DNA from: an uncultured Alphaproteobacteria bacterium
GTDB lineage: Bacteria > Pseudomonadota > Alphaproteobacteria > RF32 > CAG-239
Direction: 5' to 3'
Assembly (NCBI GenBank): GCA_944391405.1
Contig: CALXTN010000003.1
Coordinates: forward strand, 5,587-69,586
Length of the DNA stretch: 64,000 bases
Positions 252 to 59,054 of this stretch are shown here, piece by piece (position 1 is the stretch's first letter; each line of letters opens with the position of its first letter). Made by a program: the position numbers and the translations under genes. The notes below the pieces were generated by a model. That model did not search any database. It was given only the letters and a program-made list of their open reading frames with translations, and was not told the DNA's origin.

Positions 252-1751
252 CTAATGTTTGTCAACGTACTCGTAGCTTTTTGTTTGGACATTATAGCGG
301 CAATCATAACTTTGATATTCCGGTTTCAAGATATATAAATCATCTCGATTAAGAGGGGTATACATTTCTTGCAACATATGACTGCTAATCCAATGTATCG
401 GATGTACACCTATTTCTCCCCTATACTCCCGATAGGTGTCATAATAATTTTTTCCATAGATTATTTTTGGGCGGTACTTTCTGATTAAACTCTCTAAATC
501 TGATATTGGACGGATGCCTATTGTTGCTGCTATTACGTCTATTTGACCTTTCAAATTCCAGATAAAATCTATATCTTTATTGAATAAATTATATCCTATG
601 CGATAGCCGTTTACAACATAGTCGCATGGATTGGTTAACCTTAACACAAAACCTGATGCTCCGTATTTATAATCATCTCCCACAGTAATACGCTGTCTAT
701 ATATATTCGCATATATTCCGCCTAAAACTATAAAATAGCTCAATACTATATATGAGAACCATTGTTTCTTTTTAATTATCTCTGCAACGAACACTCCGGC
801 CAATGTTGATGCTAATGCATGCAATAATGCAAAATAGTACACAAACGGAGTAAAATAATACATACGTATCAAGTATTCCATAATAAATATTATTGCAAAG
901 GTTTTGACATATACATCCCCATCATAAACATTTTTTACCAAGGCATATATTGCCAATAATATTGGCACAGTCATTTCAAAACTTGGATGGATATAGCGTC
1001 TGGTATAAAAAACATCCGGTATATGTGAATTTAACTCAAAGTTTGCTTTGATGTACATTGTCAATATATCTTCGTAATATAAAAATGCCAAAAACGCTAC
1101 AAATATGAGCAGAGGAATGCTACCACTTATAATACAATCTTTCAATTGTATCTTTTTTTCTCTTATCAGCCATAGAATAATCAAACCTATTCCAATTAGG
1201 ATTAAGGCTGCTTTTTGCGTAAACATAAATGATGCAAAAAAAAGTATTAAGGAAACAAATAAAGATAGTACTCGTTTGTCTCGCATATAACAAAACAGAT
1301 AATATATACCGGCTATTATTGCTGTTGCCATAAAATTATCCGGCTTAAAATCTTTGTTATATAAACTTTCTTGCGGAAGAGCGCAAAATGCCGCTGCCAC
1401 TAAACCACCTATCTTATTTGATAAAAAATCTTTATGCAGGCGATATATATACCACAGCATTAGAAGAAAAACAGTTACAGTCAACATATTAACCGCATCA
1501 ACCGCACGCAAACTGTATTCATAATAACCAACTAAAGGTGCGCCCACATACCACAATAGCGGATTATGATGTTGAAAGAAATCTTTATACGGTAATTTTC
1601 CGTTCCAGACTAACCATGATGTATGTACGTGTTCTAACGTATCTCCATCTCCGGATCCGCTATAAATTATCGTCCAATACAGTAGCCCTCCGCAGAAAAT
1701 TAAATATAATCCTAAAATAGCTTTTATTATATTTTCTTTATTAAAAAGCAT
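252..1751 (-). CDS. Polytopic membrane protein, GT-C (ArnT/PMT-like) glycosyltransferase family
   Basis: Many TM segments, GDxxEHxHxxW..GKxPYxDFFQHHNPLLWY loop, DFKPD motif, soluble C-terminal domain. Start moved to the ATG at 1751 (MLFN), which overlaps the end of the upstream paralogue. Confidence 0.65.
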   Translation of the reverse strand: MLFNKENIIKAILGLYLIFCGGLLYWTIIYSGSGDGDTLEHVHTSWLVWNGKLPYKDFFQHHNPLLWYVGAPLVGYYEYSLRAVDAVNMLTVTVFLLMLWYIYRLHKDFLSNKIGGLVAAAFCALPQESLYNKDFKPDNFMATAIIAGIYYLFCYMRDKRVLSLFVSLILFFASFMFTQKAALILIGIGLIILWLIREKKIQLKDCIISGSIPLLIFVAFLAFLYYEDILTMYIKANFELNSHIPDVFYTRRYIHPSFEMTVPILLAIYALVKNVYDGDVYVKTFAIIFIMEYLIRMYYFTPFVYYFALLHALASTLAGVFVAEIIKKKQWFSYIVLSYFIVLGGIYANIYRQRITVGDDYKYGASGFVLRLTNPCDYVVNGYRIGYNLFNKDIDFIWNLKGQIDVIAATIGIRPISDLESLIRKYRPKIIYGKNYYDTYREYRGEIGVHPIHWISSHMLQEMYTPLNRDDLYILKPEYQSYDCRYNVQTKSYEYVDKH

Positions 1752-3282
1752 TATATATCGGTTCCTTATAAAAATATTCCCAAGTATCTGTCTTTGCATT
1801 ATATCGGCAACGACGTTTTACTTGATATTCCGGTTTTAGTATAAATATATTTACAAATGGTGATTGCATATAGTATCTATCCCTGATTGACGTATCTACC
1901 CAGTGAACTGGAACTTCTATATGTTTCTGCCGAAGTTTTTCATCCCAATATGGTCCGGTATAAATGATACGAGGAAAATCTTTTAGTACAGCTTTATTTA
2001 AATTTGGTAATGGTGCTAGTCCTATCTTATCACCTATTACATCAAGTTGTCCATTTAGGTTCCAATAATAGGTTATATCTTTTGTAAAAATGCCATAAGT
2101 CAGCCCGTATCCATTTAAAACTGAATCGCATCGGTTTGTTTGTTCTAACACATATTTGGGAGTTACATATCTGAAATAATTTGGTGGTAATTTTTTTTCT
2201 GCACAATATAAGCAAAATACATACACCCCCATCAACGACAAGGCTGCAAAAATATATGCTGTCCAATTCCAGCGATTGATAATCTTGCCTGCAAAACCAC
2301 CCACCATTATGCCATTTAAAATTTGCATTTGATAATAGTAATGTCTGTCTAGAGAAAAGTAGAAAAAGCGTTGTATAGCTTCTGCTAACCATAATAGACA
2401 TATTATTCTTGAGCAAGTATTACCTCGGTATAGAAAATATCCTAACGATATAAAAGATATGGCACTTACCACGTAAAATTCTATTTTTGTTTTTTCAACA
2501 TTTCCACCGTATACTTCAGGTATATATAAATTAAAAATATAATTAGAAAGCCAATATTGCTCAAATATATTGTGATAGAATAGCCAACAAAGAAAAATTA
2601 TACTTCCAGTTATAGGTAAAATAAGAGCCTTAACAAAATCTTTTTTTTCTATGTTTTTCGCATATAATTGATATATTAACACGGCCCCAACAAACACTAG
2701 CAGAAAAATCACTTTTTGCATAAATAAAAAAGAAATAAACAAACTTAAAAAAGATATAACCAAATTTTTTGTTTGTTTATTTTCCAAATACAGCAGAAGA
2801 TAATATACTCCCAGCATAAAGGTAAATACCATATAGTTATCTGGTCGAAAGTCTTCTCCACTAAAGGTGACATAAGATGGAAAAATTGATGCTACACCGA
2901 TTATGGCTGCATACCAATTATTTATCATAAAGCGACGAACCATTAATGCCACTATCCAGAGGCTACCAAACATTACTAATGTGGAAATGATTCTTACAAC
3001 ATCAAATAAAAATATATCATACGCCAAATATCCCACTAAGGGCGCAAATAAATACCATAATAACGGATTATGATGTTGAAAAAAATCCAGATACGGAACT
3101 TTCCCTATATAAATCAACCAAGTTGAATGCATATGCTCTATATCATCTCCTGTTTCAGGCTGATGATTATACAGCACCCAAAATGCCGCACCGACACCAA
3201 ATAAAATTTGTAGTATAAAATATATTTTCGGCAATATGCTTATTACCGTTTTTTGTGCTCTCTCCTCAGTCAGTTCAGACAT
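1741..3282 (-). CDS. GT-C (ArnT/PMT-like) glycosyltransferase, paralogue of 252..1751
   Basis: Same EHMHSTWL..PYLDFFQHHNPLLWY and DFRPD motifs. GGAGG RBS. Confidence 0.65.
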   Translation of the reverse strand: MSELTEERAQKTVISILPKIYFILQILFGVGAAFWVLYNHQPETGDDIEHMHSTWLIYIGKVPYLDFFQHHNPLLWYLFAPLVGYLAYDIFLFDVVRIISTLVMFGSLWIVALMVRRFMINNWYAAIIGVASIFPSYVTFSGEDFRPDNYMVFTFMLGVYYLLLYLENKQTKNLVISFLSLFISFLFMQKVIFLLVFVGAVLIYQLYAKNIEKKDFVKALILPITGSIIFLCWLFYHNIFEQYWLSNYIFNLYIPEVYGGNVEKTKIEFYVVSAISFISLGYFLYRGNTCSRIICLLWLAEAIQRFFYFSLDRHYYYQMQILNGIMVGGFAGKIINRWNWTAYIFAALSLMGVYVFCLYCAEKKLPPNYFRYVTPKYVLEQTNRCDSVLNGYGLTYGIFTKDITYYWNLNGQLDVIGDKIGLAPLPNLNKAVLKDFPRIIYTGPYWDEKLRQKHIEVPVHWVDTSIRDRYYMQSPFVNIFILKPEYQVKRRCRYNAKTDTWEYFYKEPIYNAF

Positions 3283-3322: not shown

Positions 3323-4294
3323 TTATGCTTCTTCTGACGAAGTTCCGCTATTTGAAGGGTTATCTTCTGATGGAATTACATCCGGCAGCATACCAATTGC
3401 TTTTTTACGCTTCAATTTATTTACAAACTTAATAGAGCGTTGAGCATCCCACTTTTTCTTTCCTTCTTCTCTTTGGAAAATATGCTTATATATTTCTATT
3501 GCTTGATCAAATTCTGATAACTTAGTCAAACAAGATGCTAACCCGTCATAAAGTTTATGATGATAACGTCCATCTACTAAATTTTTAGCCTTATTATAGC
3601 ATTTTAGAGCATCTTTGAACTTAAACATTTTTTGATATACAAAACCAATACTAATCCATGCTTGGATTTCTGTACTGTCTATATTTAAAATTTTCGTAAA
3701 GCACTTCAGAGCCGAATCGTTATCCCCCATCAACTGATAGGTCACGCCGATACCGTTCCATGCTTTTACATTTGATTTATCTAACGCTAAAACTTTTTTG
3801 AAGTACCCGATAGCCCTTTCATATTGTTTTAATTTTTGTAAAGTAACCGCGATACTAAGTAATGTTTGCGGATGCTTCGGATCTACCTGGTAGGCTTGTT
3901 GTAAAACATCAAGAGCTTCTTTAAATAAGAACATGTGTTGTAAAGCAATAGCCTTACCATTCAAGGCTTCTAAAGATGTCGGATCATTTGCATAAGCTTC
4001 CTCAAAGCAAGTAATTGCTTCTTTGTAGCGCCCACGCATACTTAATGTTACCCCCTTATTGTTAAGTACTTCCACTGATTTCGGATTGATTGCTAAAGCC
4101 TTATCAAAGCATTCTACAGCTTCTGTGTATTTACTCATCTTCTGATAAGCAAAACCTTTTGAATTTATAGCTTTCCATGAATCGGGCTGTTGAGCCAAAA
4201 ACTCATCAAACTGAGCAATCGCTTCTCTACACATTCCTGAATCTAAAAGTTCCTGCCCTCTTTTATAGGCATTATTATCACTTAACTTAACCAT
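3323..4294 (-). CDS. Tetratricopeptide-repeat protein
   Basis: About eight 34-aa TPRs (e.g. AINSKGFAYQKMSKYTEAVECFDKALAINP). Confidence 0.9.
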   Translation of the reverse strand: MVKLSDNNAYKRGQELLDSGMCREAIAQFDEFLAQQPDSWKAINSKGFAYQKMSKYTEAVECFDKALAINPKSVEVLNNKGVTLSMRGRYKEAITCFEEAYANDPTSLEALNGKAIALQHMFLFKEALDVLQQAYQVDPKHPQTLLSIAVTLQKLKQYERAIGYFKKVLALDKSNVKAWNGIGVTYQLMGDNDSALKCFTKILNIDSTEIQAWISIGFVYQKMFKFKDALKCYNKAKNLVDGRYHHKLYDGLASCLTKLSEFDQAIEIYKHIFQREEGKKKWDAQRSIKFVNKLKRKKAIGMLPDVIPSEDNPSNSGTSSEEA

Positions 4295-4430
4295 ATTCTT
4301 TCTCTACATAGTTTTACAAAATAATTCATTGCGCATTATATGGTTACTTTTTTGTCTTTGTCAAGATAAAAAAACACATAACTTCTGTTCATTAGCCTAT
4401 TTTCACCTTAAGTTTTTTAAGCACCAACTG

Positions 4431-4509
4431 TTGACAAAAAATATTTTTGACAATATATTTTGCATCCTTATCATTAACTTTATGTTTCATTATTAAATTT
4501 TTTATCATT
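4431..4509 (+). promoter_or_regulatory. Sigma70-type promoter and conserved leader with mini-ORF MFHY* (4482..4496)
   Basis: TTGACA(4431)-17-TATATT, then ATG TTT CAT TAT TAA, 13 nt, main ATG. No SD. Confidence 0.7.
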
Positions 4510-6291
4510 ATGGAAAAAACAAACATTTGCAAACTTTCTTTTTGGAAGAAACATGCTCTGTTGCGTCAATTGAAAAAAAATCCAGCTTCCGTTCCTCTAC
4601 AGTATCAAGCAGCTTTATTGGATGCGGTATCAACAAAGACTTTTAAGAATTACTATTCTGATTTTTCTAAGTTCGCACCTGAAGCTTTTGATGTTCTTTT
4701 GGAACCGCGTAACAAAGAGAAATTTAAGTATTGTAAATTCTTGAACTTTGAGCCAACTCAACTTGCTCAAGAATTTGTTCAAAAAGGAACTGATGAACAG
4801 GTGCTTGATGTGTTGGAAACCCACTGTTGCACATTGGGGCATGTTCTTTTGGAGCGTTCTTCTGAATTGTTTGAAAGATATGTCCGCCGAATGGAAACCA
4901 TTCCTTTAAATTTATGGAAGGAAATCATCAAACAAAAACGGGAAGATTTGATTTTGATGTTTCTTAAATTCAGAAACCAAGATAATGTCTTATCCGAACA
5001 GTATGTGAATGCTCTTTTTGATTCTGCTTTGGAGAAGGGAATTCAGGCTTACTTGGAACAAAATTCTGTTTTTGGATTATCCAGAGTGAGCTTGTATATA
5101 TTGAAATCAGGCGATTTTACCCTTTGCAAAAAGTTGCTTGAAAATAATCCATTAACATCTGCTGCAGAATATAATCAGTTGTTTAAGCTTAATCAACCGG
5201 AGCTTATTTTGATACTAGTCCAAAAAATGCTTCAGGCTGATGAAGATATTGCTTATGAGGTTCCAGTTGATTTTGAGGTTGCTCTTATTGATAGCGGTGC
5301 CACAGAAGCCATTAAGCTTTATATGCAAAAAAATGAACTTGATTATGGAGCTACTTTCTGTCTCTTTGAAACCGGAAATGAGGAACTTATACGTTTCTAT
5401 TTGGAATCAGATCACTTTAAGGAGTGTCAAAAATTTCCAGTTGATGCGGCGGCTATGTGTCTTTTTTCCGGAAACAACACCAGTCTGCAATGGTGCTACA
5501 AAAGTAAATTCGGTCTGCCTTATCAGTTGGAACGTCAGTTGATAGTTTCTCAACAGGATGCTCTATCTGACTATATCTGCGCTTATGAGCTATATCCTTT
5601 GAATGCGGCACTGTTAATGGAAAAAGGACCTATTGACGATGCGATTGCATATTTCCAAAAGTATCCGTTACCGAGTATTGCAGAGGTTGCTTTGTTCAAA
5701 AACAGTAGCGACAATTTGCGCAAAGCGTACATTGATTTTTTGCTCGAAAAGCAAACTCTTGTTTGTGAAGCTGCGGAAAAGTATTTTGTTAAATTTGCTC
5801 CTCAAAAGAAATTGATGACTTATTTGCAAAATAATGCTCAATCTCCTCTTAAAAGTGTGGATGGTGAAATTGCTTTGTTAAAGCGAGAGGATGCTGAGTT
5901 GTGCCATTTTTATGTTAAAAAATTTGGTTTTAAAACTCAAGCGCTTGTTTCTTTCATTCAATGCGGTTCGGTTGATTTTATCAAATCTATTTTCGAAAAT
6001 TATCTGCTGCCAGACGAAGTTTTAAGCGCCTTGATTGACAGCGGCAGAAACTCTTTGATGATTAAATTCTTCAAAGAATCTGACTTGGATAAAGAACTAG
6101 AACTCAAACTAATCCATTCCGATTTTTCTAAAAACGAAAAGGCCGTTTGTTTCTATCTGGATAAGTATGATTTGCTTGATGATAATGAAGTTGAGTTAAT
6201 TAAACTCAACAACAAAAAAATGATTGAGGTATATTTGGCCAAACATTCTCTTTCAGAGAAAGCAACACAATTATATGCCTCTATGTATTAG
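4510..6291 (+). CDS. ~26-aa helical-repeat protein, family member 1
   Basis: Recurrent LSxxAExxL[FI]xxxNxELIxxYLxx[HY] repeats. Start at ATG 4510 chosen by analogy with the paralogue leaders. Confidence 0.8.
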   Translation: MEKTNICKLSFWKKHALLRQLKKNPASVPLQYQAALLDAVSTKTFKNYYSDFSKFAPEAFDVLLEPRNKEKFKYCKFLNFEPTQLAQEFVQKGTDEQVLDVLETHCCTLGHVLLERSSELFERYVRRMETIPLNLWKEIIKQKREDLILMFLKFRNQDNVLSEQYVNALFDSALEKGIQAYLEQNSVFGLSRVSLYILKSGDFTLCKKLLENNPLTSAAEYNQLFKLNQPELILILVQKMLQADEDIAYEVPVDFEVALIDSGATEAIKLYMQKNELDYGATFCLFETGNEELIRFYLESDHFKECQKFPVDAAAMCLFSGNNTSLQWCYKSKFGLPYQLERQLIVSQQDALSDYICAYELYPLNAALLMEKGPIDDAIAYFQKYPLPSIAEVALFKNSSDNLRKAYIDFLLEKQTLVCEAAEKYFVKFAPQKKLMTYLQNNAQSPLKSVDGEIALLKREDAELCHFYVKKFGFKTQALVSFIQCGSVDFIKSIFENYLLPDEVLSALIDSGRNSLMIKFFKESDLDKELELKLIHSDFSKNEKAVCFYLDKYDLLDDNEVELIKLNNKKMIEVYLAKHSLSEKATQLYASMY

Positions 6292-6307
6292 CCTTTGCAA
6301 CTTATTC

Positions 6308-6340
6308 AAACTGCTTCCGATTTTTCGGAGGCAGTTTTTT
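6308..6340 (+). terminator. Rho-independent terminator
   Basis: aaactgcttccga-tttt-tcggaggcagttt plus U-tract. Confidence 0.85.
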
Positions 6341-6341
6341 G

Positions 6342-6416
6342 TTGACTCAAATGTTTTTTGGTTTACGATTTGTTTAAATTATTAATTTTATGTCTTACTA
6401 TTAATTTTTATTTATT
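6342..6416 (+). promoter_or_regulatory. Sigma70-type promoter and leader with mini-ORF MSYY* (6390..6404)
   Basis: TTGACT-16-TACGAT, then ATG TCT TAC TAT TAA, 12 nt, main ATG. Confidence 0.7.
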
Positions 6417-8192
6417 ATGCGTACCAATCAATTAAAAACGCCTTCTCTCCTAGAAACTTGGAGACAGGTCTTGCTTTTTCTGATTTTTCACAAAGAAATT
6501 GCTCCTCAATATCATTCTCAAATGGTTTTGCTCCATGGTTGTTCAAAGAAATCTCTTTTTCTGTATGTGAAAAATTTTCCGCTAACGGATGAAGCTTTGA
6601 TGCTATTGTTTCAAAAAGCTGATAAAGGCTTTCTTCAAAAATTTTTATCTCATTATTTTTGGGATTTTCCACAAAATGGCGAACAAATTCTTTTAGACAG
6701 ATTTGGGCTCGATTTTCTGATAGACAATTTAAAATGGACGTTGTCTACAAAAACAGAGTTAAATTTACTGCAACTGGAAAATGCTGAGCTGATTGGAAAA
6801 TACACTAATCAATGTACTTTTACTCCTGAGGCAGAGTTGGAATTTTTTAAGAAACCTTTTCCTGATTTACAGAAAGCTTATGCCGAAAAAAATGATTTAT
6901 GTGATAAAACAGAGAATTTTTTACTTGAAACGAAAAACTTTGAATTGCTATCTATTCATCTTATTAAATTTGGTTTGAAGGATGATGTGGTTGAAACTTT
7001 TTATCGTAACGCTCCTGATGATTTGGTTTTGACATACTTAAGTGAAGTATCCAGTTATCCTTCCGATAAAGAGTTTAAAACTCTTTTATCCAGATCCATT
7101 ACAGATTTTATCAAACAAATTGTCTTAAGATTTGATGATATAAATTACCGTCATTTAAAGATGTTGTTAAAATCTAAACGCTCCAATTTAGTGAGAGCAT
7201 ATTTGGAACAAAAAGCTGAACAAAAATCTTCTCTATCCAATACGGTTTGGAGAAGTTTGTTTGATGTTCCTGATTTTGAGGTTCCCCTTCAATTTGCCTT
7301 AAAGCATTTTGATTTGCCTGAGGAATTTGAGGTCCGCTTATTTAAAGCGCAACTTTTGGATTTATTGGAATACTATACTCAAAATCATGCTTTTCAAAAT
7401 TGGGGATTTCCGATGTTGCTTGCTTTAGGTAAACGAGATCTTTTGTTGAACTATTTGACTTTTCATCAACTTTCTTGGGGAGATGAGTGCTTGTTAATTG
7501 AGCAAAATGACAAAGAACTAATTGATTGTTATCTTAAGAAACATTCCTTTAGTTCGTATGCTCAAGCGATTAGAATAAAAACTGCAGGCTTTTCAAATGC
7601 TCTGGCTATTGTCAAAACGCTTGATAAGTTTGACGACTTTATTCTTGATGCTTTATTTTATCATAATGAAGAAGAGTTGTGGGAAGTTTATCTCTCTCAT
7701 TGTAACTACCATTTTAGAGAAGATTTGTTAATTAAATTTTTTGAACGTGCCAATGTTGATGTGATTATCAACTACCTTTCTTATTATTTAATTGACGGAA
7801 AACTTTCTTTGAAATTGGCTAACAACAAATTAGAAGATGAACTCTATTTCACGTTGTACAAACGACAAAATGAAAAGATTACAGGCTTTTTGTTACAACA
7901 CTCATCTCTTATATCTATTCGTGATTGTTGGTTTATTCGTTATGCTTCTTATGATTTTATCAAGCAATTCTTAGAGAATTTGTTTGATAAGAATATTGAG
8001 CTTTCCGCTGAGGCTGAAAAAGAATTAATTTGCAGAAAATATGAAGATTTATTGCAGCTTTATTTCGCTCATTATTCTTTGTACCAAGAAAATCTTGTTT
8101 TTCTAGCGCATTTGCTTTCTCCGGAACTTATGAGAGATTATCTCTTAAGCCATAGAGAAGACAAAGACTTAATTCAAAAACTGTTATCTTAG
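6417..8192 (+). CDS. ~26-aa helical-repeat protein, family member 2
   Basis: Repeats such as LSAEAEKELICRKYEDLLQLYFAHYS. N-terminal LHGCSKKSL is shared with member 3. Confidence 0.8.
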   Translation: MRTNQLKTPSLLETWRQVLLFLIFHKEIAPQYHSQMVLLHGCSKKSLFLYVKNFPLTDEALMLLFQKADKGFLQKFLSHYFWDFPQNGEQILLDRFGLDFLIDNLKWTLSTKTELNLLQLENAELIGKYTNQCTFTPEAELEFFKKPFPDLQKAYAEKNDLCDKTENFLLETKNFELLSIHLIKFGLKDDVVETFYRNAPDDLVLTYLSEVSSYPSDKEFKTLLSRSITDFIKQIVLRFDDINYRHLKMLLKSKRSNLVRAYLEQKAEQKSSLSNTVWRSLFDVPDFEVPLQFALKHFDLPEEFEVRLFKAQLLDLLEYYTQNHAFQNWGFPMLLALGKRDLLLNYLTFHQLSWGDECLLIEQNDKELIDCYLKKHSFSSYAQAIRIKTAGFSNALAIVKTLDKFDDFILDALFYHNEEELWEVYLSHCNYHFREDLLIKFFERANVDVIINYLSYYLIDGKLSLKLANNKLEDELYFTLYKRQNEKITGFLLQHSSLISIRDCWFIRYASYDFIKQFLENLFDKNIELSAEAEKELICRKYEDLLQLYFAHYSLYQENLVFLAHLLSPELMRDYLLSHREDKDLIQKLLS

Positions 8193-8202
8193 TTTCTTAA
8201 CT

Positions 8203-8232
8203 GCCTTTCCTACTTTGAGGAAAGGCTTTTTT
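8203..8232 (+). terminator. Rho-independent terminator
   Basis: gcctttcct-actttg-aggaaaggc-tttttt. Confidence 0.85.
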
Positions 8233-8244
8233 ATTTTCCTTTTA

Positions 8245-8319
8245 TTGACAAAAAATTTTTTTTAGTTTAGGCTTACCGTACTTTTATAATTTTATGTTTC
8301 ACTATTAATTTTTATCATT
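8245..8319 (+). promoter_or_regulatory. Sigma70-type promoter and leader with mini-ORF MFHY* (8294..8308)
   Basis: TTGACA-17-TAGGCT, then ATG TTT CAC TAT TAA, 11 nt, main ATG. Confidence 0.7.
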
Positions 8320-10098
8320 ATGGGAAAAGAAGTTAAAAGGTCTTCTGTTTGGGCAACCAGACTTGAAGTATGGAAATTTTTGCGAATGTATCAAAAAGAT
8401 CAGTATTATGAAATTGATCCCAAACATCATTTGAATATGATGGAACTAAGAGGTTGTTCTAAAAAGGCACTCGCTCTGTATTTAGAATGTAATCATGCAA
8501 TCTCCGAGGATGTTATTCTGTTTTTATTGAAAAAGAAAAATACGGAGATGCTTCAATTCTGGGCTGAACATGCAAAAAATGTTTCTCTATCTCCAGAAAC
8601 TGAGAAAGCTGTTGTGGCAAAATTTGGTTTTGATGTATTGCTTAAAAACAATATTCATCTATCAGAGAAATCTACATTAAAATTTTTGCAGGGAAAGAAC
8701 TTGTCGCGTCTTCCTACGTCGTATTTACGTTGTTTGACATTTTCACCAAACACAGAAGAAACTCTGCTTACGTTGAAAAATTCAGAACTTGCTTGTTCCT
8801 ATCTTTGTGAGCACAAGGTTAATGACTGTAATCAGCATCTCATTCTTCTTTATGATGATCCTGATGTGTATAAAGCTTTTGCGCGACATAATTCCTTTGA
8901 AGATATATTGGAGGATATTATTAAGACAAAATCTTTGGAAATTTCCAAAATTGCTTTGTTGAATACACCGGATCTACCTGTTGAAATTGAGAAAATTTTG
9001 GTTGATACTAATAACTTACCTCTATTAGAGTTTTGTATTAATCATATTAAATTTTCTGATGAACTCATTGATTATTTAGCACAGCACGCATCTGATGAAG
9101 TTTTTGAAACTTATGCCAGACATGAAGATTTCTCTGATATAGACAGTCGTGATAGCGTTTATCAAAGGCTTTTTGAACCTAGGCATTTAGAACTTCTTAA
9201 AGAACATTTACAGGAATATAATGTTCCCGGTAAATTTGAAATTCGTTTGCTTGAAAGTGGCAATAAAGATTTGATTGATCTTTATTTTCAAGATAGTTTT
9301 GAACTCTCTCCTGAAGCAAAAGCTTGGCTTATGGAACACCAACAATCTGAGCATGCCGCAAAATTGCTTGATCATGTTGATAATTTGGGCTATTTAGGAG
9401 AAATTTCCTTATTTAAATCCGGTGATGATGTGAAAATCAAACATTACATTAATTCTCACTCTCTTAATATTATCTCTGATGCCGCTTTGTTTAAATTTGC
9501 TTCTTCTCAGCTATTAAAAGAGCATTTAAATTCGTGGGTTCCCAGTGATTTAGCTCAAATAGCTCTCATTAAGAGACATGATTTGGAACTTTTAAAACTT
9601 CTTTGGACTGATGACTTTGAGTTTGATGATGTTCCTTTGAGAATTTTCTTAAACGAAGCTGATGATGATACAATCTTGATGTATCTTCAATATTTGGCGG
9701 CTAACTATGAAGATTTTTCTCTTGGTTCTGATTCTGACGAGTCCGAGAATTCTTTGCCTCTAAGCGAAATTTTGCATCAAAGACACTTGGATAAATCCGC
9801 AATGTTCTTTGTTTCAAACACTTCTCTTACAGAAGCTGATGAATGTGCTTTGGCTGCTTATGGCTCAAAAGAAGTTATTCAAACTTATCTTAAGGAACAT
9901 GATTTGTGTTCAGAAGCTGAAAAATTATTGCTTTGTCGTGGAGATATAGAGCTTGTTCGGCAATATATTTCTGAGAACGAACTTTATAGCGATAATGAAC
10001 AATATCTATTTGTTTTTGATGATTGGGATTTGATAAACTTCTATCAGGAAAAACACAGTTTTTCTGACAGCGATGTTACTGAAGCTCTGGATAATTAA
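8320..10098 (+). CDS. ~26-aa helical-repeat protein, family member 3 (very acidic)
   Basis: Repeats such as LCSEAEKLLLCRGDIELVRQYISENE. LRGCSKKAL N-terminal motif. Confidence 0.8.
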   Translation: MGKEVKRSSVWATRLEVWKFLRMYQKDQYYEIDPKHHLNMMELRGCSKKALALYLECNHAISEDVILFLLKKKNTEMLQFWAEHAKNVSLSPETEKAVVAKFGFDVLLKNNIHLSEKSTLKFLQGKNLSRLPTSYLRCLTFSPNTEETLLTLKNSELACSYLCEHKVNDCNQHLILLYDDPDVYKAFARHNSFEDILEDIIKTKSLEISKIALLNTPDLPVEIEKILVDTNNLPLLEFCINHIKFSDELIDYLAQHASDEVFETYARHEDFSDIDSRDSVYQRLFEPRHLELLKEHLQEYNVPGKFEIRLLESGNKDLIDLYFQDSFELSPEAKAWLMEHQQSEHAAKLLDHVDNLGYLGEISLFKSGDDVKIKHYINSHSLNIISDAALFKFASSQLLKEHLNSWVPSDLAQIALIKRHDLELLKLLWTDDFEFDDVPLRIFLNEADDDTILMYLQYLAANYEDFSLGSDSDESENSLPLSEILHQRHLDKSAMFFVSNTSLTEADECALAAYGSKEVIQTYLKEHDLCSEAEKLLLCRGDIELVRQYISENELYSDNEQYLFVFDDWDLINFYQEKHSFSDSDVTEALDN

Positions 10099-10110
10099 AC
10101 TTCTTTTTTT

Positions 10111-10145
10111 AAAGACTCCCCCTTTATTGGTGGGAGTCTTTTTTT
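10111..10145 (+). terminator. Rho-independent terminator
   Basis: aaagactccc..gggagtcttt plus U-tract. Confidence 0.85.
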
Positions 10146-10220
10146 GACAATATTCCTTTTTCTCACTACTCTTTTGCGCAGTTAAGTAATTTTATGTTTC
10201 ATCATTAAAATTTTATATCT
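10144..10220 (+). promoter_or_regulatory. Sigma70-type promoter and leader with mini-ORF MFHH* (10194..10208)
   Basis: TTGACA-17-TACTCT, then ATG TTT CAT CAT TAA, 12 nt, ATG at 10221. Confidence 0.7.
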
Positions 10221-10600
10221 ATGGAAGAAAAAGTCTGTTCGGAAAGAACGTGGTTATTGAAAAAAGCTAAATGGGCTATTCGCAAATCTTATTGACTAAA
10301 TTCTCATTTGCCAGTTAAATATCATTTTATTTTAGTTAATCTGTAATGTTGCTCTTTACATTGTTATGTCTGCAAGATTGTTCATTATTTCCTGAAGCAG
10401 AGATGCTTTTGTATGATAAATAGCAAATATCTGCCCTGAATTTCTCAAAGAATACATTGGTACACATAGTGCTACAAATTTCCTATTGTTTAAGCAGATT
10501 CTGAGGATAAAGATTTGATCAAAATGCATTACTTAAAGTATGGTTTGAATGACGAGGTTATTGTTTTTCTGGCAAGTTTTAATTATTTAGGTATTTGAGA
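10221..10600 (+). pseudogene. Decayed, internally deleted member of the helical-repeat family
   Basis: MEEKVCSERTWLLKKAKWAIRKSY*LNSHLPVKYHFILVNL*CCS resembles IAPQYHSQMVLLHGCS of member 2. Later fragments LFPEAEMLL and DSEDKDLIKMHYLKYGLNDEV resemble ETKNFELLSIHLIKFGLKDDV. In-frame stops and a frame change. Confidence 0.75.
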
Positions 10601-10613
10601 TTTGGCAACTTTT

Positions 10614-10640
10614 AAAGCCCCGATTTCTCGGGGCTTTTTT
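10614..10640. terminator. Terminator between the pseudogene and the convergent gene
   Basis: aaagccccga-tttc-tcggggcttttt. Confidence 0.85.
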
Positions 10641-10656
10641 ATTGAGCTTTTTATAG

Positions 10657-11106
10657 CTATTGAAACGTTACAACGTAACAATTCAATTGCATATTATTAA
10701 TCTGTTCGACAATTCTTTCTCCGTCGACTTCAAAAATACCACTCATCGTAGCATTGTACCCGAATGGATGGTTTCCTTTGTTTCGGATATTGTTTAGTAT
10801 CCAATACAAATCTATGGATATAAAACCTCCATATATTGCAAATAGCATTTTGACAATTTGCTTACTTCCATGAAAGGCATATTTTCTTTTTTCCGGTTTT
10901 GTTGGATATTCAACTAATACTTGTATCTCTTCTGGATTAATTTTTGCCAAATATTTCGCACTTGCAATGTATGTTGCTGCGCCGTCGTACTCGTTGTTGC
11001 CAATATAACGAAAAAAGAAAATATCTTTTTTCTTAGATATTAATTGTACGTGCATATTTTTTTCTATATACGATAGAAAAATTTTTTCTTGTTCTTGTGT
11101 TATCAT
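10657..11106 (-). CDS. Hypothetical protein, opposite orientation within the repeat-gene array
   Basis: 149-aa ORF with its own TTGACA-16-TAAACT promoter (about 11151-11178). No recognised motif. Confidence 0.6.
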   Translation of the reverse strand: MITQEQEKIFLSYIEKNMHVQLISKKKDIFFFRYIGNNEYDGAATYIASAKYLAKINPEEIQVLVEYPTKPEKRKYAFHGSKQIVKMLFAIYGGFISIDLYWILNNIRNKGNHPFGYNATMSGIFEVDGERIVEQINNMQLNCYVVTFQ

Positions 11107-11187
11107 ATGTGTATATTTTTAATAGTTATAATAATTTATTTTCTAAATTAAGTTTACTCGCTTTCTGTTTTTTGTCAACAACCTTTC

Positions 11188-11268
11188 TTGACAAATTTAT
11201 TGACCTCTTTATAATGCTCGTATCAATTTAATTTTATGTTGTACTATTTTATCTTTTTACCATTATGA
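11188..11268 (+). promoter_or_regulatory. Sigma70-type promoter and leader with extended mini-ORF MLYYFIFLPL* (11236..11268)
   Basis: TTGACA-16-TATAAT, then ATG TTG TAC TAT.., whose TGA overlaps the main start (ATGA). Confidence 0.7.
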
Positions 11269-11873
11269 AAGCTATTGAAATTTGGGACAATTTCCTTGCT
11301 GATAAGCAACAGTTGTCTGAAAAAGATGAACTTATTTTTGTACGTAAGGGGCACGATGAATGGCTCTTAAAATATCTGCAAAAATTTTCTCTTGGTGAAA
11401 AAGCAGAACTCCTTCTCATCACTTATCGTTCTCATCAGGTTGTATTGGATTATATTTATTTCTCCAATGAACCTTTTTTTCTTCAGTCTGAAGAGGCCTT
11501 GTTGAAACGAAAAGATACCGAACTCATTTTGAGATACGCTCATAAATTCTGTTTTGTTCCTGAACTTCATGAACTTATGGTCAACATTTCTGATGAAGAG
11601 GTCTTGCTAGGATATTTTCTTGAGGAGCAGTTGTCTCCTGAGGGAGAAATAAAACTTATTGAGCGAAACTCCTATAAACTTTTTAGTGCGTATATCACAG
11701 AGTATGCTCTTAATGAAAAAGCAGAGCACTTTCTGATTGAACAGAAAAAATATAACTTGTTCAAAATCTATGTTTCTGAACACGATCGTATTGCTCAATC
11801 ATCTTTGGATTTGTTGGCTAATTCTCGTGACGAAGAAATGCTGGATATTTTCCGAGAATTCTGCTTACGCTAA
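11265..11873 (+). CDS. Short ~26-aa helical-repeat protein (about 7 repeats), family member 5
   Basis: LSEKDELIFV../LGEKAELLLI../LSPEGEIKLI../LNEKAEHFLI.. periodicity. Confidence 0.8.
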   Translation: MKAIEIWDNFLADKQQLSEKDELIFVRKGHDEWLLKYLQKFSLGEKAELLLITYRSHQVVLDYIYFSNEPFFLQSEEALLKRKDTELILRYAHKFCFVPELHELMVNISDEEVLLGYFLEEQLSPEGEIKLIERNSYKLFSAYITEYALNEKAEHFLIEQKKYNLFKIYVSEHDRIAQSSLDLLANSRDEEMLDIFREFCLR

Positions 11874-11886
11874 AAATTTATTAATG

Positions 11887-11923
11887 AAAAACTCTCTATC
11901 CTTTGTGGCTAGAGAGTTTTTTT
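11887..11923. terminator. Bidirectional terminator
   Basis: aaaaactctcta..tagagagttttttt between convergent genes. Confidence 0.8.
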
Positions 11924-11924
11924 A

Positions 11925-13313
11925 TTAGAATTCAGCGATTGCTTTTCCGCTTCGCCAGTTTTGTTCTATCTGCTCCAAAGAGCGCCCTTTCGTTTCCGGA
12001 ATGTATTTCCATGTGTAGAATAAACTAAAAATTCCGACCACTCCAAAAATACTAAAGGTTAATGCTTCGCCGATTGTTGCAAGCAATGTTGGAAAAATTA
12101 AAGCAACAATAAAGTTAAATACAAAGTTGGACATTGTTGCTATGCTCATTGCAGTTCCTCTTATTGCCAACGGCATGATTTCTGATATTAATATCCATGC
12201 AATCGGACCTAATGAAAAAGCGAAACTTGCAATAAATGTTATAATACTACCTACCGCTACCCATTTTGTATCGTAGCCATAATTACTGCTTAGCCAGAAT
12301 GAGACGGATAAAACAAACAAACTTACCGTAATACCGCTTAATCCCGCATATAATAATGGTTTACGTCCTAATCTGTCTGTAAAGAATATGGCCACAAATG
12401 TCATTGCAAAATTGACAACACCTACTCCGACAGATGCATATAAAGCTCCAATGTTATCTGTAAAACCAGCTGCTTTAAATATTGTTGCCGCATAGTAGAT
12501 AATTGTATTTATACCTGTGCAGATTTGAATGAACATTATAAAAATACCAACTAATACAGGACGCAACATCCAATTTTCAAAGACTTTTCCTTTTTTCTTT
12601 TCACTTACTTTTAATGTTGCTTGAATTTCTTTAACTTGTTTGTCAGCATCTTCTTCCGGTTCAATCTTTTTGAAAATTTCCTTTGCTTCACTATAACGAC
12701 GGCGACTTATTAACCAACGAGGTGTATCGCCCAAGAAACTAATACCTACAAGTAAAATAACTGCCGGTATCAATCCAGCTCCCAACATCCAGCGCCAGTT
12801 ATATTCCGATAATGCAAATACTCTGTTGATTAAGTATGAGAACAAAATTCCTGCCGTAATTGCTAATTGATACAAAGAAACCAACATTCCTCTAACTTTT
12901 TGCGGTGATAACTCTGATAAATACAACGGTATCACAAAGTTTACCATACCTATTGCCAATCCCAATATCATGCGACCACAAACCAACCATCCCACACTCG
13001 GGGCGAATCCGCAAATTACAGAACCTATCGCAAAAATTGTCGCCGTTGCTATGATGACTTTTTTACGGCCATACACATCTGCCAATACGCCATTTACCGC
13101 AGCACCAACAACGGCTCCGACTAATGCGGAACTTACGACCCAGCCTTGTTGTAATGTGCTTAGCGGCCAACTTTCATTAATGTAGAGTAACGCTCCTGAA
13201 ATTACTCCTGTATCAAATCCGGAAAGTAATCCTCCTAATGAGGCTATTCCTGCAATTACATATAGTAAAAAGTGCTTTATACGTCCTTTGTTTTGAATTG
13301 TTGTCGCATTCAT
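11925..13313 (-). CDS. MFS sugar porter (GalP/AraE/XylE family)
   Basis: GLLSGFDTGVISG, D..GRK, PLYLSE, TDRLGRK and PETKGRSLEQIE motifs. About 12 TM. Confidence 0.95.
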   Translation of the reverse strand: MNATTIQNKGRIKHFLLYVIAGIASLGGLLSGFDTGVISGALLYINESWPLSTLQQGWVVSSALVGAVVGAAVNGVLADVYGRKKVIIATATIFAIGSVICGFAPSVGWLVCGRMILGLAIGMVNFVIPLYLSELSPQKVRGMLVSLYQLAITAGILFSYLINRVFALSEYNWRWMLGAGLIPAVILLVGISFLGDTPRWLISRRRYSEAKEIFKKIEPEEDADKQVKEIQATLKVSEKKKGKVFENWMLRPVLVGIFIMFIQICTGINTIIYYAATIFKAAGFTDNIGALYASVGVGVVNFAMTFVAIFFTDRLGRKPLLYAGLSGITVSLFVLSVSFWLSSNYGYDTKWVAVGSIITFIASFAFSLGPIAWILISEIMPLAIRGTAMSIATMSNFVFNFIVALIFPTLLATIGEALTFSIFGVVGIFSLFYTWKYIPETKGRSLEQIEQNWRSGKAIAEF

Positions 13314-27255: not shown

Positions 27256-27912
27256 TTAGAAGTACTTCCAAACTACACCGTTCAAGCTTTGTGCGCAAGC
27301 AGCATTTGCATCAACGATGCTATATGGTAAACCATGATCTGTGTCTCCAGGAAGGTGTATATTTGTATTTGCTGTATAGCTAGATGTCGGTCCTGAGATG
27401 TTATCAATATTCCCTTCTGCAGAACCTGAAGCACCAGCACCAATCCACATAGCAGCTAAACCAGAACCTGCGTCTCCACCCCAGTCAGTTGTTGCGATTG
27501 ATACGCAAGCGCTCTGAGGAATCTGGTCAAAGCTGAGCGCAAATGCCATTTCATCTCCATCATCGGACTGGTCAACAGCCTGAATAACTACTTCACCACC
27601 AAATGCATTAACTATTCTCAATTCTGCAGAAACACTTCCGCTAGCGGATGCGGATACTGTTTCGTACATTTCAGTAGGAATCAAGCCTGCTTGAACTGCC
27701 ATACCGTTTGTCAAACCAGAATATGTTCTTTGTGAAGAGAACAATGTTCTAATATTGGTAGAAATCATCTGTACTTGATCACTTACTTTATTGGTCTTAA
27801 ACTTGTTCATAGCTTTTGAATAACCAGCAATACCACCAACTGACAATACGCCAACGATAGCCAAAACGCCGAGCATTTCAATCATTGAACGACCTTGTTC
27901 ATTAACTCTCAT
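27256..27912 (-). CDS. Type IV pilin-like protein (PilS/type IVb-like head)
   Basis: Class III signal EQG|RSMIEMLGVLAIVGVL with Glu at +5. NAFGG..V and IPQSACVSIA motifs. Cys pair. Strong RBS. Confidence 0.85.
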   Translation of the reverse strand: MRVNEQGRSMIEMLGVLAIVGVLSVGGIAGYSKAMNKFKTNKVSDQVQMISTNIRTLFSSQRTYSGLTNGMAVQAGLIPTEMYETVSASASGSVSAELRIVNAFGGEVVIQAVDQSDDGDEMAFALSFDQIPQSACVSIATTDWGGDAGSGLAAMWIGAGASGSAEGNIDNISGPTSSYTANTNIHLPGDTDHGLPYSIVDANAACAQSLNGVVWKYF

Positions 27913-48054: not shown

Positions 48055-49572
48055 TTATTGCTTATCTTCATCGGCAAACCAGTGTTCACGGGCTGCCATG
48101 ATGATACGATTTGCTTCAACTTCGGTAATGACTCCATCACCTAAAATTTCAATCAATTCGTCTGCGGCTAGATCTGCTAAGTCATCCAATGTCTTTACGC
48201 CATTTTCAGCTAAGCTTATTATCATATCTTGATCAAGACCAGATATTGTCTTTAAGCTGTCATCAACACCCAAGGTCTTGCTCTTTTCAACAAATTCTTC
48301 ATTACGCTTTTTAACGAATTCTTTTGCTCTGCTTTGTAACTCAGCAGCTAAATCTTCATCAAAACCATCGATTGATGCCAATTCAGAAACATCTACCATC
48401 GCAATTTCATCAACTGTTGAAAATCCTTCTGAAATCAGAACGTGCGCAATCATTTCATCTACATCTAATGCAGAAACAAAACGCTCTGATTTGATTCTAT
48501 TTTCATTTGCGCGTCTTTCATGTTCTTGCTCTTCTGTTAAAATATCAATATCTGCACCTACTAATTGAGATGCTAATTTAACATTTTGTCCGCGACGTCC
48601 AATTGCCACAGAATATTGGTCTTCGGTTACAACAACTTCTATTCTGTTGTTTTCCTCATCCAAAACAACCTTGCTTACTTCTGCAGGAGCTAGCGCACTT
48701 ACGATAAATTGAGCTTTATCTGCGGAGTATGGTACGATATCAATTTTTTCACCTTGTAATTCGGTTACAACTGCTTGAACACGAATACCTCTTAAACCAA
48801 CGCATGCTCCTACTGGATCAATTGATGAATCTTTTGCTTTTACAGCAATTTTAGCTTTTGAACCAGGATCTCTGGCTACACCCATGATTTCAACTAAACC
48901 ATCATAAATTTCAGGTACTTCTGATGTAAATAATTTAGCCATAAATTCTGGGCATGTTCTTGATAAGAAAATTTGCGGACCGCGGGTTTCACGACGTACA
49001 TCCAAAACATAAGCTCTTACTCTGTCGCCATTTTTAAAATTTTCTCTCGGAATTAATTCATCTCTGCGTAAAATGGCTTCTGTTTTGCCCATATCTACAA
49101 TAACATTACCAAATTCCAGTCTTTTTACTGTACCATTGATAATGGTACCAATCTTTTCTTTATATTCTTCATATTGCTTATTACGTTCTGCTTCGCGGAC
49201 CTTTTGCATAATGACCTGCTTTGCTGTTTGAGCTGCAATACGACCAAAATCAATTGGTGGAAGCGGATCTATAATATATTCTCCGACTTTTACATCTGGA
49301 TTTATTCTCTTTGCTTCTTCCAATGTTAACTCTGTTGTTTCATTTTCAATCTCATCAACAACAGCTCTATAGCGAGCCAATGTAATAGCTCCGGTTTTAC
49401 GGTTTATGTTCACGCGAATATCATGTTCAAATCCGTATTTAGAACGTCCGGCTTTTTGAATAGCCTCTTCCATGGCTTTGAATACATCTTCGCGGTCTAT
49501 ATTTTTCTCTCTGGCAACAGTATCTGCCACCATTAGAATTTCTGGTCTGGGCATGTTTACTATATTTTCCAT
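48055..49572 (-). CDS. nusA: Transcription termination factor NusA
   Basis: FGRIAAQTAKQVI, ARDPGSKAK, DPVGACVG and AIGRRGQNV. Confidence 0.99.
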   Translation of the reverse strand: MENIVNMPRPEILMVADTVAREKNIDREDVFKAMEEAIQKAGRSKYGFEHDIRVNINRKTGAITLARYRAVVDEIENETTELTLEEAKRINPDVKVGEYIIDPLPPIDFGRIAAQTAKQVIMQKVREAERNKQYEEYKEKIGTIINGTVKRLEFGNVIVDMGKTEAILRRDELIPRENFKNGDRVRAYVLDVRRETRGPQIFLSRTCPEFMAKLFTSEVPEIYDGLVEIMGVARDPGSKAKIAVKAKDSSIDPVGACVGLRGIRVQAVVTELQGEKIDIVPYSADKAQFIVSALAPAEVSKVVLDEENNRIEVVVTEDQYSVAIGRRGQNVKLASQLVGADIDILTEEQEHERRANENRIKSERFVSALDVDEMIAHVLISEGFSTVDEIAMVDVSELASIDGFDEDLAAELQSRAKEFVKKRNEEFVEKSKTLGVDDSLKTISGLDQDMIISLAENGVKTLDDLADLAADELIEILGDGVITEVEANRIIMAAREHWFADEDKQ

Positions 49573-58900: not shown

Positions 58901-59054
58901 TTCCACAGTTAAAGCGGCTATTACCGAATATGCCGACTACATTAAAGAGCAAGTCTTAGCGCTTGAGATTGCGGAAAATGCAAACCTATCAGCTCCAACT
59001 GTTGATGAACTTGGTGGTTCTGAAGTTAAGTTTGATGTTATCAAAGCAGCTTAA
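55938..59054 (+). CDS. ileS: Isoleucyl-tRNA synthetase, type 2
   Basis: DGPPFANG.PHYGH, WTTTPWTLP, DWSISRNRFWG, KLSKR and a long C-terminus without the type-1 zinc finger. Confidence 0.97.
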   Translation: MTEKRKYYPELNAKINFPEMEKNILNFWEEDKTFEKSVHNRDGAAEFVFYDGPPFANGTPHYGHMMVSYVKDAVARFQTMGGKKVERRLGWDCHGLPAEMSAEKQLGVSGRKQIEAYGVEKFNDFCRKDVLKYSNIWVDMFKRIGRWVDFNHDYKTMNLPFMESVIHNFKELYDKGLVYEDYRVLPYSWAAETPLSNFEVNLGYRDKTDNAITVMFTLENGQKILVWTTTPWTLPSNLMLAVGKDIDYVVMNENGQDYILAEARLSSYKKQLENATVIKKIKGSDLVGMNYTPMFPYFSHFKDKGAFKVLSGEFVSTEDGTGVVHIAPGFGQDDFDVCRAYDENFPVACPVDEAGKFTAEVPDYEGKQVFETNESIMQWLKSNGLLVKKEQYTHTYPYCWRTDTPLIYKAMSSWFVKVTDFRDDMVKNNQQINWLPSHIKDGRFGKWLEGARDWSISRNRFWGTPIPVWKSDNPKFPRVDVLGSIAEIKEKTGFDVDNLHKPYIDDVVYPNPDDPSGKTMMRRVSDVFDCWFESGSMPYAQVHYPFENKEWFENHFPADFIVEAIDQTRGWFYTLTVLSTALHNKPAFKNCICTGLLMAEGGQKLSKRLKNYPDPNDILETIGSDALRWFLISSPVLKGGNVAVDKEGKEIAKAARKALIPFWNAYYFFTLYANAEGIEAKEISQSGDVLDSYILAKLKALSDIVRKDMNEYEIARACAQIEDFLEILNNWYIRRSRARFWSGDDLSAFNTLYTVLVNVAKIAAPLMPFMSEFVYKGLTGKESVHLEDLPNLSAITDNAQLIEQMDMVRAISSVAKAIREEHKLRNRLPLRSMTIAGDNTVTLKDFADALKDEVNVKEICLKSDIADVAGRFLYLKTPLIGKRLGAHMKDIMAKSKTNDWSQNEDGTLSIAGQTLFAEEYELRLVIKDGMSGQALPDNTAVVILDTEVDENLEKEGIARDFVRMIQALRKTKDFDISDRIKLAYSSNDSTVKAAITEYADYIKEQVLALEIAENANLSAPTVDELGGSEVKFDVIKAA

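Follow-up and report, generated by a model that had tools for sequence, protein, structure and literature searches.

Five leaders in the window, a 64,000-nucleotide (nt) stretch of the genome of an uncultured Alphaproteobacteria bacterium (lineage RF32, CAG-239; assembly GCA_944391405.1, contig CALXTN010000003.1, positions 5,587 to 69,586), carry a miniature open reading frame (mini-ORF) between the promoter and the main start codon, and none of them has a Shine-Dalgarno (SD) site. Sequence comparisons indicate that these five mini-ORFs represent one local version of a genome-wide promoter-leader module of about 75 to 80 nt and are not specific to the genes that they precede. The conserved element of the leader is TGT and not ATG. 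The most likely reading, held tentatively, is that the module leader is an mRNA-level signal for SD-independent initiation or control.

The promoter-leader module and the mini-ORF

The sequence TTTATGTYNYAYYAT has exact matches at 4479, 6387, 8291, 10191, and 11233, and no further match at up to one mismatch was found in the 64-kb window. The expectation from shuffled sequence was 1.32 matches, and five matches were reached in 1 of 100 shuffles. The mini-ATGs lie at 4482, 6390, 8294, 10194, and 11236, and the main ATGs follow at 4510, 6417, 8320, 10221, and 11265, at distances of 26 to 29 nt. As read from the sequence, all five leaders possess a TTGAC(A/T) hexamer, a spacer of 16 to 17 nt, and a TAnnnT hexamer 20 to 22 nt before the mini-ATG, with TTT directly preceding the mini-ATG and no purine-rich SD site. 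Four of the mini-ORFs comprise four codons followed by TAA, in the form ATG-NNN-YAY-YAT-TAA, and the fifth runs for 10 codons, with its closing TGA overlapping the main ATG (an ATGA overlap). The positions and distances are as described in the first-pass annotation, which had also called the leader far better conserved than the coding DNA. Consistent with the latter claim, the mean pairwise identity among the five leaders was 0.80 in the region of the two boxes described below and 0.78 from the boxes to the ATG, compared with 0.43 in the 20 nt upstream, 0.43 in the promoter region, and 0.47 in the first 300 coding nt.

The genome containing the window is 1.72 Mb long in 68 contigs, with a G+C content of 36% and no assembled 16S rRNA. 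GGAG, GAGG, or AGGA was found at positions −18 to −5 of 755 of 1,411 rough ORF starts, compared with 63 of 1,411 in a control interval, and the 3′ end of the 16S rRNA of a close relative has a normal CCTCC anti-SD sequence. The host otherwise uses ordinary SD pairing, in line with the annotation's remark that the housekeeping genes neighboring the five leaders have such a site. In the genome, TTATGT peaks 27 to 29 nt before the ATGs of long ORFs (18, 15, and 13 occurrences), with mostly 1 to 9 occurrences at other distances. A positional word search of 314 starts without an SD site returned TTAAA at −17 (46 starts), TATGT at −28 (18 starts), TAACT at −23, and TTGAC at −77 as the top words. The same architecture recurs in a broad class of 65 genes, chosen by the absence of an SD site and the presence of a TTG-type hexamer 60 to 80 nt upstream, often with ATTATTGT or ATTATTAT in place of the TTTATGT of the window, and most of these 65 leaders were judged by eye to bear the boxes.

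The module begins with a sigma-70-type promoter (TTGACA, 17 nt, TAnnnT), which is followed by about 12 variable nt. Box A, WTGTnTMAY, comes after an A-rich stretch or TT and has its G 21 to 28 nt upstream of the start codon. Box B, TTAAA, lies 1 to 4 nt after box A and about 16 nt upstream of the start codon, and it is followed by a U-rich stretch, ATT or TTT, the ATG, and an A-rich second codon (GAA or AAA). The distance from box B to the ATG averages 15.7 nt with a standard deviation of 1.6, and that from the box A G to the ATG has a standard deviation of 1.7. A TTG-type −35 hexamer lies 48 to 55 nt upstream of the box A G in 24 of 27 modules, and 30 of 32 modules have a TTG-type −35 hexamer of their own.

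Further copies, for which the annotation had proposed a genome scan, were found throughout the genome. An expectation-maximization motif search with a flat background was diluted into the A/T content, and nhmmer was too weak on short A/T-rich DNA; an anchored position weight matrix (PWM) was therefore used, with the supposed start triplet masked, a threshold score of 7, and the G required 20 to 30 nt before an ATG. When all starts were scored, the PWM identified 34 leaders, compared with 4 in the control interval. Thirty-two of 47 high-scoring matches were in the sense orientation just upstream of an ORF start. A strict module pattern (TTGAC-N41-47-WTGTNTMAY-N14-22-ATG) had 23 matches in this genome, compared with 1 when the core was reversed. 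Among 19 promoter-plus-box-A sites with an ORF, 18 were without an SD site and 16 to 32 nt from the ATG, and none had an SD site.

Only 2 of 24 class proteins had a Pfam family above the cutoff (Band_7 and Peptidase_M16_C), compared with 19 of 24 other window ORFs, a control that omitted ORF 10657-11106, which has no family and a class-like leader. An iterated profile search assembled a superfamily of 23 predicted alpha-solenoid paralogs in this genome, which holds all of the window carriers of the leader and 11 of the 34 class members, with the other 23 lying outside it. The module thus appears to head mostly orphan genes, most of them mutually unrelated. The description of the leader as family-wide was right for the window, where the carriers belong to a single superfamily, and too narrow for the genome. 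Tandem arrays are common among the carriers. A foreign origin of the class genes was considered and rejected, as their ordinary G+C content (37.5%, compared with 36.7% for the rest) gives no signal of one. In the promoters, runs of 7 to 14 A or T residues are frequent in the −35/−10 spacer right after TTGACA, for example, at 8251-8263 of the window, and the same is seen in relatives. Homopolymer tracts in promoter spacers can vary in length and switch promoters in other bacteria.

The strict module was present in all 24 same-genus genomes, with 2 to 21 matches each (built-in control, 0 to 2). Of 16 genomes from the same class but from different families, 12 had no match and 4 had 1 to 3 matches; the reversed-core control gave 0 to 2 matches in every genome. 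Within the bacterial family of the host, 73 of 80 genomes and all 23 sampled genera had the module (control, 0 to 4 matches per genome). Judged by this distribution, the module is an old, maintained trait of the family.

The further copies also bear on the mini-ORF. In the 34 PWM leaders, the masked triplet was ATG in 15, TTG in 12, and another triplet in 7. Leave-one-out analysis of the strict module gave T 13, A 10, and G 1 for the base before TGT; within TGT, T preceded G in 23 of 23, the counts at the G were G 23, T 5, and C 3, and T followed G in 23 of 25. Both sets of counts identify TGT, and not ATG, as the conserved element. In this genome, a stop codon precedes the main ATG in 9 of the 15 ATG copies and in 2 of the 12 TTG copies. 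The first-pass hypothesis of a conserved, translated upstream ORF (uORF) with re-initiation is contradicted by copies that keep the motif and lose the ATG or the frame, the outcome that the annotation itself had named as its refutation, and it has no support beyond the window subfamily. Neither the ATG, the TAA, nor the frame is conserved, with a stop before the main ATG in only 11 of 27 ATG and TTG copies. What the data favor is the alternative offered with that hypothesis, namely, a shared binding site or an A/U-rich, SD-independent initiation signal.

The frame was also examined in nine further genomes of the genus, from which 80 module sites were taken; 76 had a clear main start, and the other 4 were dropped because the rule used gave no main start. 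The first base, restricted to W by the pattern, was A in 54 and T in 22. In the 54 ATG frames, 35 stopped before the main start, 13 crossed it out of frame, 6 were in frame with it, and none was open. Control frame +1 gave 22, 22, 10, and 0, respectively, and control frame +2 gave 46, 4, 3, and 1, the last being open at the end of the fetched stretch. Since the control frames reach 22 and 46 of 54, early stops are what TAA-rich sequence gives in any frame. The boxes are spaced 6, 7, 9, or 10 nt apart, which changes the register from copy to copy. Codons differ at their first and second positions (TTT, TCT, and TAT; CAY, AAY, and TAY), and the third triplet is AAY, CAY, or TAY throughout. The annotation had stated that codons 3 and 4 are always His or Tyr (YAY), which is true of the window subfamily; elsewhere, the position is mostly AAY. 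The mini-ORF looked convincing in the window because the 590-amino-acid (aa) subfamily mostly keeps the four-codon frame (4 of the 5 copies in the window and 8 of the 9 leaders read from 578- to 594-aa genes in related loci). The ATG...TAA reading would then be a by-product, with WTG supplied by box A and TAA by box B in some registers. A reading of TTG as the start of an N-terminal extension was rejected as well. In 6 of the 12 TTG copies, no stop separates this frame from the main ORF, and the frame is not read as coding because two of these are near-identical duplicates and a 2-nt indel in a close paralog breaks the frame.

Candidate functions of the leader

The sense strand of the leader is 53.5% T and 32.8% A, with about 7% each of G and C, and G falls to 4.3% at positions −20 to −1. 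Predicted folding is weaker than in shuffled sequence, with a mean z score of +0.70, and the minimum free energy is −2.6 kcal/mol, compared with −5.0 kcal/mol for the leaders of genes with an SD site. RNAalifold found no consensus structure in the class leaders, and a riboswitch or thermometer was rejected for want of a consensus fold. A search of window positions 4300-11400 against Rfam 15 returned nothing at the gathering threshold, and the weak matches sit on terminators. Reliance on reduced structure around the start is described for genes without an SD site in one published account (PMC5397173).

These properties suggest a tentative scheme in which the leader, about 40 nt long, U-rich, and predicted to be unfolded, would act on the mRNA. 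The 30S subunits would load on the open U-rich start region without anti-SD pairing. Ribosomal protein S1 is the usual candidate for loading of this kind. Boxes A and B would be the sequence-specific part, possibly read by a conserved component of the bacterial family, such as a ribosome-associated protein, an RNA-binding regulator, or a small RNA, and through the leader, all genes of the class would share one translational setting or form of control. In a bolder form, which we consider rather doubtful, the family would run a second, sequence-defined ribosome recruitment code beside SD pairing, consisting of boxes A and B at set distances from the start, read by a dedicated conserved factor, and serving the expression or co-regulation of fast-evolving orphans, including the expanded alpha-solenoid family.

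Several observations weigh against an mRNA-level signal. The distance from promoter to box is likewise narrow (24 of 27 within 8 nt), which suits a DNA-level or polymerase-linked role just as well. Individual promoters are the rule (30 of 32 modules), and no module was seen at an internal gene of an operon, where a pure translation signal might also occur. Complementarity of 7 nt to 16S rRNA, with G-U pairs allowed, peaked at 22 of 27 boxes, compared with 20 to 25 for shuffled boxes, when the 27 boxes were compared with the 16S rRNA of one relative and counted by bin. A crude look at intergenic high-scoring matches on both strands, in which a promoter-plus-terminator unit bearing the complement of a box was sought, gave no small-RNA partner, and no reader of boxes A and B turned up. 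Looser box-A-like sequences coexist with purine-rich, SD-like stretches in a few genes. The leader of a TPR gene (3323-4294; leader at 4295-4385, minus strand), for example, has TTGACA, 17 nt, TATAAT, the box-A-like sequence ATTATTTTGTAAAAC, GAGAAAG, and ATG, so that a box-like sequence can coexist with a weak SD-like stretch. Three runs labeled as RNA proved to be contigs of relatives and were uninformative on transcript starts, strand, or level; they contained 7 to 8% of the words, came from relatives at 88 to 95% identity, and covered parts of genes in 4300-12000, and one contig piece matched only the leader at 6376-6409, with unlike flanks. With regard to a leaderless mRNA, TTGACA-17-TAnnnT predicts a leader of about 40 nt, and box B, itself TAnnnT-like and 9 to 16 nt before the ATG, could in principle give one of about 3 nt.

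Because of the narrow distance from promoter to box, a DNA-level operator or polymerase pause site remains a serious, if somewhat unlikely, rival. Box A, with or without box B, would then be an operator for a repressor or activator conserved in the family, or a promoter-proximal pause signal for RNA polymerase with sigma-70 still bound. Either would occupy roughly positions +13 to +30 relative to a strong constitutive promoter, and the absence of an SD site would have a separate cause. The fixed distance from the box to the −35 hexamer and the presence of an individual −35 hexamer in nearly all modules fit this explanation, as does the near-invariant TGT, which a protein contact would give, and a perfect TTGACA would need a repressor if the genes are regulated. 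A second TAnnnT 2 to 4 nt upstream of the TG, seen by eye in about 19 of 27 modules, also fits but is weak in A/T-rich DNA. However, no dyad or direct-repeat symmetry was seen by eye in the boxes, orientation is strict, and the sense strand has more T than A. The boxes keep as narrow a spacing to the ATG as to the promoter, which is needless for an operator, and none of the 19 promoter-plus-box-A sites with an ORF has an SD site. In addition, no specialized elongation factor paralog was found beside the single NusG.

Initiation at the upstream WTG, followed by translation of 3 or 4 codons, termination at TAA, and re-initiation 10 to 13 nt farther on, is improbable as the function of the leader, given the counts above. 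In such a model, the NAY codon (Asn, His, or Tyr) might sense the state of a tRNA. The model draws on the A or T before the near-invariant TG, which makes a usable bacterial start codon, on the third triplet being always AAY, CAY, or TAY, on the four-codon ORF kept in the 590-aa subfamily, and on the ATGA overlap at the fifth copy. Re-initiation needs no SD site. Nevertheless, ATG is found in only 15 of 34 masked and 10 of 24 leave-one-out leaders, only 11 of 27 copies in this genome have a stop before the main ATG, and 13 of 54 ATG frames in relatives cross the main start out of frame, with stops no more common than in the controls. Indels between the two boxes put copies in different frames, the codon differences lie at first and second positions, and the mini-ORF itself is without an SD site.

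Still less probable is antitermination or protection from Rho, in which box A would serve as a diverged counterpart of BoxA or ops, loading Nus factors or another elongation factor on the nascent RNA, and poorly translated genes without an SD site would thereby escape Rho. Box A is indeed sense oriented and early in the transcribed leader, its carriers are without an SD site, NusA is encoded at 48055-49572 of the window, and a Rho-like ORF is present in the genome. BoxA elements upstream of many protein genes are reported in a published study (PMC5725501). The GYTCTTTAANA consensus of that study was found in 0 of 34 leaders at up to one mismatch and in 4 of 34 at up to two mismatches, compared with 114 of 1,411 for all genes; the rRNA leaders of three relatives have no box-A-like block at the expected place, and only one NusG-family gene is present. 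The TTTAAC part of box A bears a partial resemblance to BoxA, but the match to the consensus failed.

It is very improbable that the leader has no present function and that its likeness was inherited through duplications of one ancestral gene with its leader, as the common tandem arrays and the single superfamily of 23 paralogs holding 11 of 34 class members and all window genes might suggest, since the boxes have retained about 80% identity, compared with 43 to 47% in the promoter spacer, the preceding 20 nt, and the coding DNA; 23 of 34 carriers lie outside the superfamily; and the module persists across 23 genera.

Modules, genes, and other features of the window

The five modules and the genes behind them are all on the plus strand, and their promoters were read from the sequence. 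Module 1 has TTGACA at 4431-4436, a 17-nt spacer, and TATATT at 4454-4459, followed by box A (ATGTTTCAT, 4482-4490), box B (TTAAA, 4493-4497), and the mini-ORF ATG TTT CAT TAT TAA (4482-4496). It heads gene 1 (4510-6291), which encodes a 593-aa predicted alpha-solenoid paralog without an SD site or a Pfam family. The promoter of module 2 (TTGACT at 6342-6347, a 16-nt spacer, and TACGAT at 6364-6369) is immediately preceded by a terminator-like hairpin with a T run; box A is ATGTCTTAC, the mini-ORF is ATG TCT TAC TAT TAA (6390-6404), and gene 2 (6417-8192) encodes a 591-aa paralog, which was modeled with AlphaFold2. Module 3 has TTGACA at 8245-8250, a 17-nt spacer, TAGGCT at 8268-8273, box A ATGTTTCAC, and the mini-ORF ATG TTT CAC TAT TAA (8294-8308), with a PWM score of 19.1, and it heads gene 3 (8320-10098), whose 592-aa product is 24% identical to that of gene 2. 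Module 4 has TTGACA at 10144-10149, a 17-nt spacer, TACTCT at 10167-10172, box A ATGTTTCAT, and the mini-ORF ATG TTT CAT CAT TAA (10194-10208). The gene 4 region (10221-10600) consists of a 24-codon ORF and then fragments, which match residues 1 to 48, 51 to 69 (in another frame), and 238 to 298 of a 307-aa relative. Gene 4 is therefore read as the remnant of a pseudogene with a frameshift, an early stop, and an internal deletion, whose promoter and leader appear intact. Module 5 has TTGACA at 11188-11193, a 16-nt spacer, TATAAT at 11210-11215, the variant box A ATGTTGTAC, and the 10-codon frame (11236-11268) with its TGA overlapping the main ATG at 11265. Gene 5 (11265-11873) encodes a 202-aa protein, a short member of the same superfamily.

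A sixth module, on the minus strand (11107-11178, with TTGACA at 11178-11173), heads ORF 10657-11106. Its leader has TAT replacing TGT, then TTAAAAA, and no SD site. The TTGACA of this module and that of module 5 stand back to back as a divergent promoter pair. The ORF, also on the minus strand, encodes 149 aa with no Pfam family and has a class-like leader.

Protein identity among the window paralogs is 18 to 24%, and no family was found in a Pfam scan of the products of genes 1, 2, 3, and 5. The AlphaFold2 model of the gene 2 product is an all-helical solenoid of about 20 helix pairs with a pLDDT of 89.3. A Foldseek search with this model returned only generic HEAT/ARM-type solenoids (best E value, 1.5e-3; TM score, ≤0.22), and a search of a protein atlas returned hypothetical clusters only.

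Other features of the window and genome were also recorded. The minus-strand ORF at 27256-27912, which is preceded by a normal AGGAG site, encodes a 218-aa protein with matches to the PilS N-terminal and Bundlin families (type IVb pilin-like). A long-type isoleucine-tRNA ligase is encoded at 55938-59054 and also gave high but sub-cutoff scores with the MupA and MupB models. At 252-3282, on the minus strand, two adjoining, overlapping ORFs of 513 to 515 aa have weak matches to PMT_2 (glycosyltransferase family 39-like). Outside the window, on contigs C17, C20, C24, C41, and C46, a second paralog family, whose proteins begin with MFVDI and are 355 to 590 aa long, has a conserved upstream region of its own, with an TTGCGCAA palindrome, a TATTCT-like −10 hexamer, TTATGTTAGGTTA exactly where the transcript is predicted to start, and a strong GGGAGAG SD site.

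Meaning and comparison with known systems

Should boxes A and B prove to be a specific signal for initiation or control, they would constitute a rare example of a defined non-SD ribosome-binding signal in an SD-reliant bacterium, common to dozens of genes per genome and at least 23 genera. The signal would be a handle on a large block of orphan genes in uncultured, small-genome Alphaproteobacteria because class membership is readable from DNA. The module could improve the calling of start sites in these genomes and would provide a clean system for asking how starts are chosen without SD pairing. It also illustrates that a neat-looking mini-ORF can be the by-product of a noncoding motif.

Three specific binding systems were considered and rejected or left aside. 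An ops/RfaH-type site was rejected, as PF02357 matches one gene only, the single NusG. For a parS/ParB site, the 16-bp parS palindrome gave only chance-level matches with three mismatches in the window; one ParB gene and one sub-threshold match were found, and box A would be at most a parS half-site. CACTAT resembles phage-type (T7-like polymerase) promoters, a likeness left unsupported, and PF00940, the T7-like polymerase family, had no match in the genome, with none in the control genomes either.

Like BoxA/Nus sites, as described in one study (PMC5725501), the module places a short element on the sense strand, early in the leaders of many genes, but it misses GYTCTTTAANA and does not resemble the rRNA leaders of its own genus. 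The rRNA leaders of the three relatives had no match to the gammaproteobacterial BoxA consensus. In all three, a conserved TTCAC block lies only a few nt downstream of the 16S promoter (TTGAC, 17 nt, TATA..). Regulatory uORFs and leader peptides likewise have a short ATG...TAA frame 10 to 13 nt before the main start, as in the window subfamily. Unlike in those systems, the start, stop, and frame in the module are not conserved, no ribosome-binding site precedes the frame, and the conservation is not codon-like.

Leader or operator motifs of a regulon can be shared by fast-evolving paralog families, for example, as conserved 5′ regions of variable gene families. As in such families, divergent tandem paralogs here each have their own promoter, conserved leader, and terminator. 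Unlike in them, the carriers are without a signal peptide or a conserved N terminus, and the motif heads many unrelated genes; no evidence of switching of module genes was found.

The nearest likeness is to A/U-rich leaders that act without an SD site (S1-dependent enhancers), which are likewise U/A rich, G poor, and predicted to be unfolded, with an A-rich second codon. A 30S subunit covers about 35 nt upstream of the start, and the boxes of the module leader lie within this span. The known A/U-rich enhancers are loosely compositional, whereas the module has defined WTGTnTMAY and TTAAA elements at fixed positions in 23 genera and is linked both to a set distance from the promoter and to one particular class of orphan genes.

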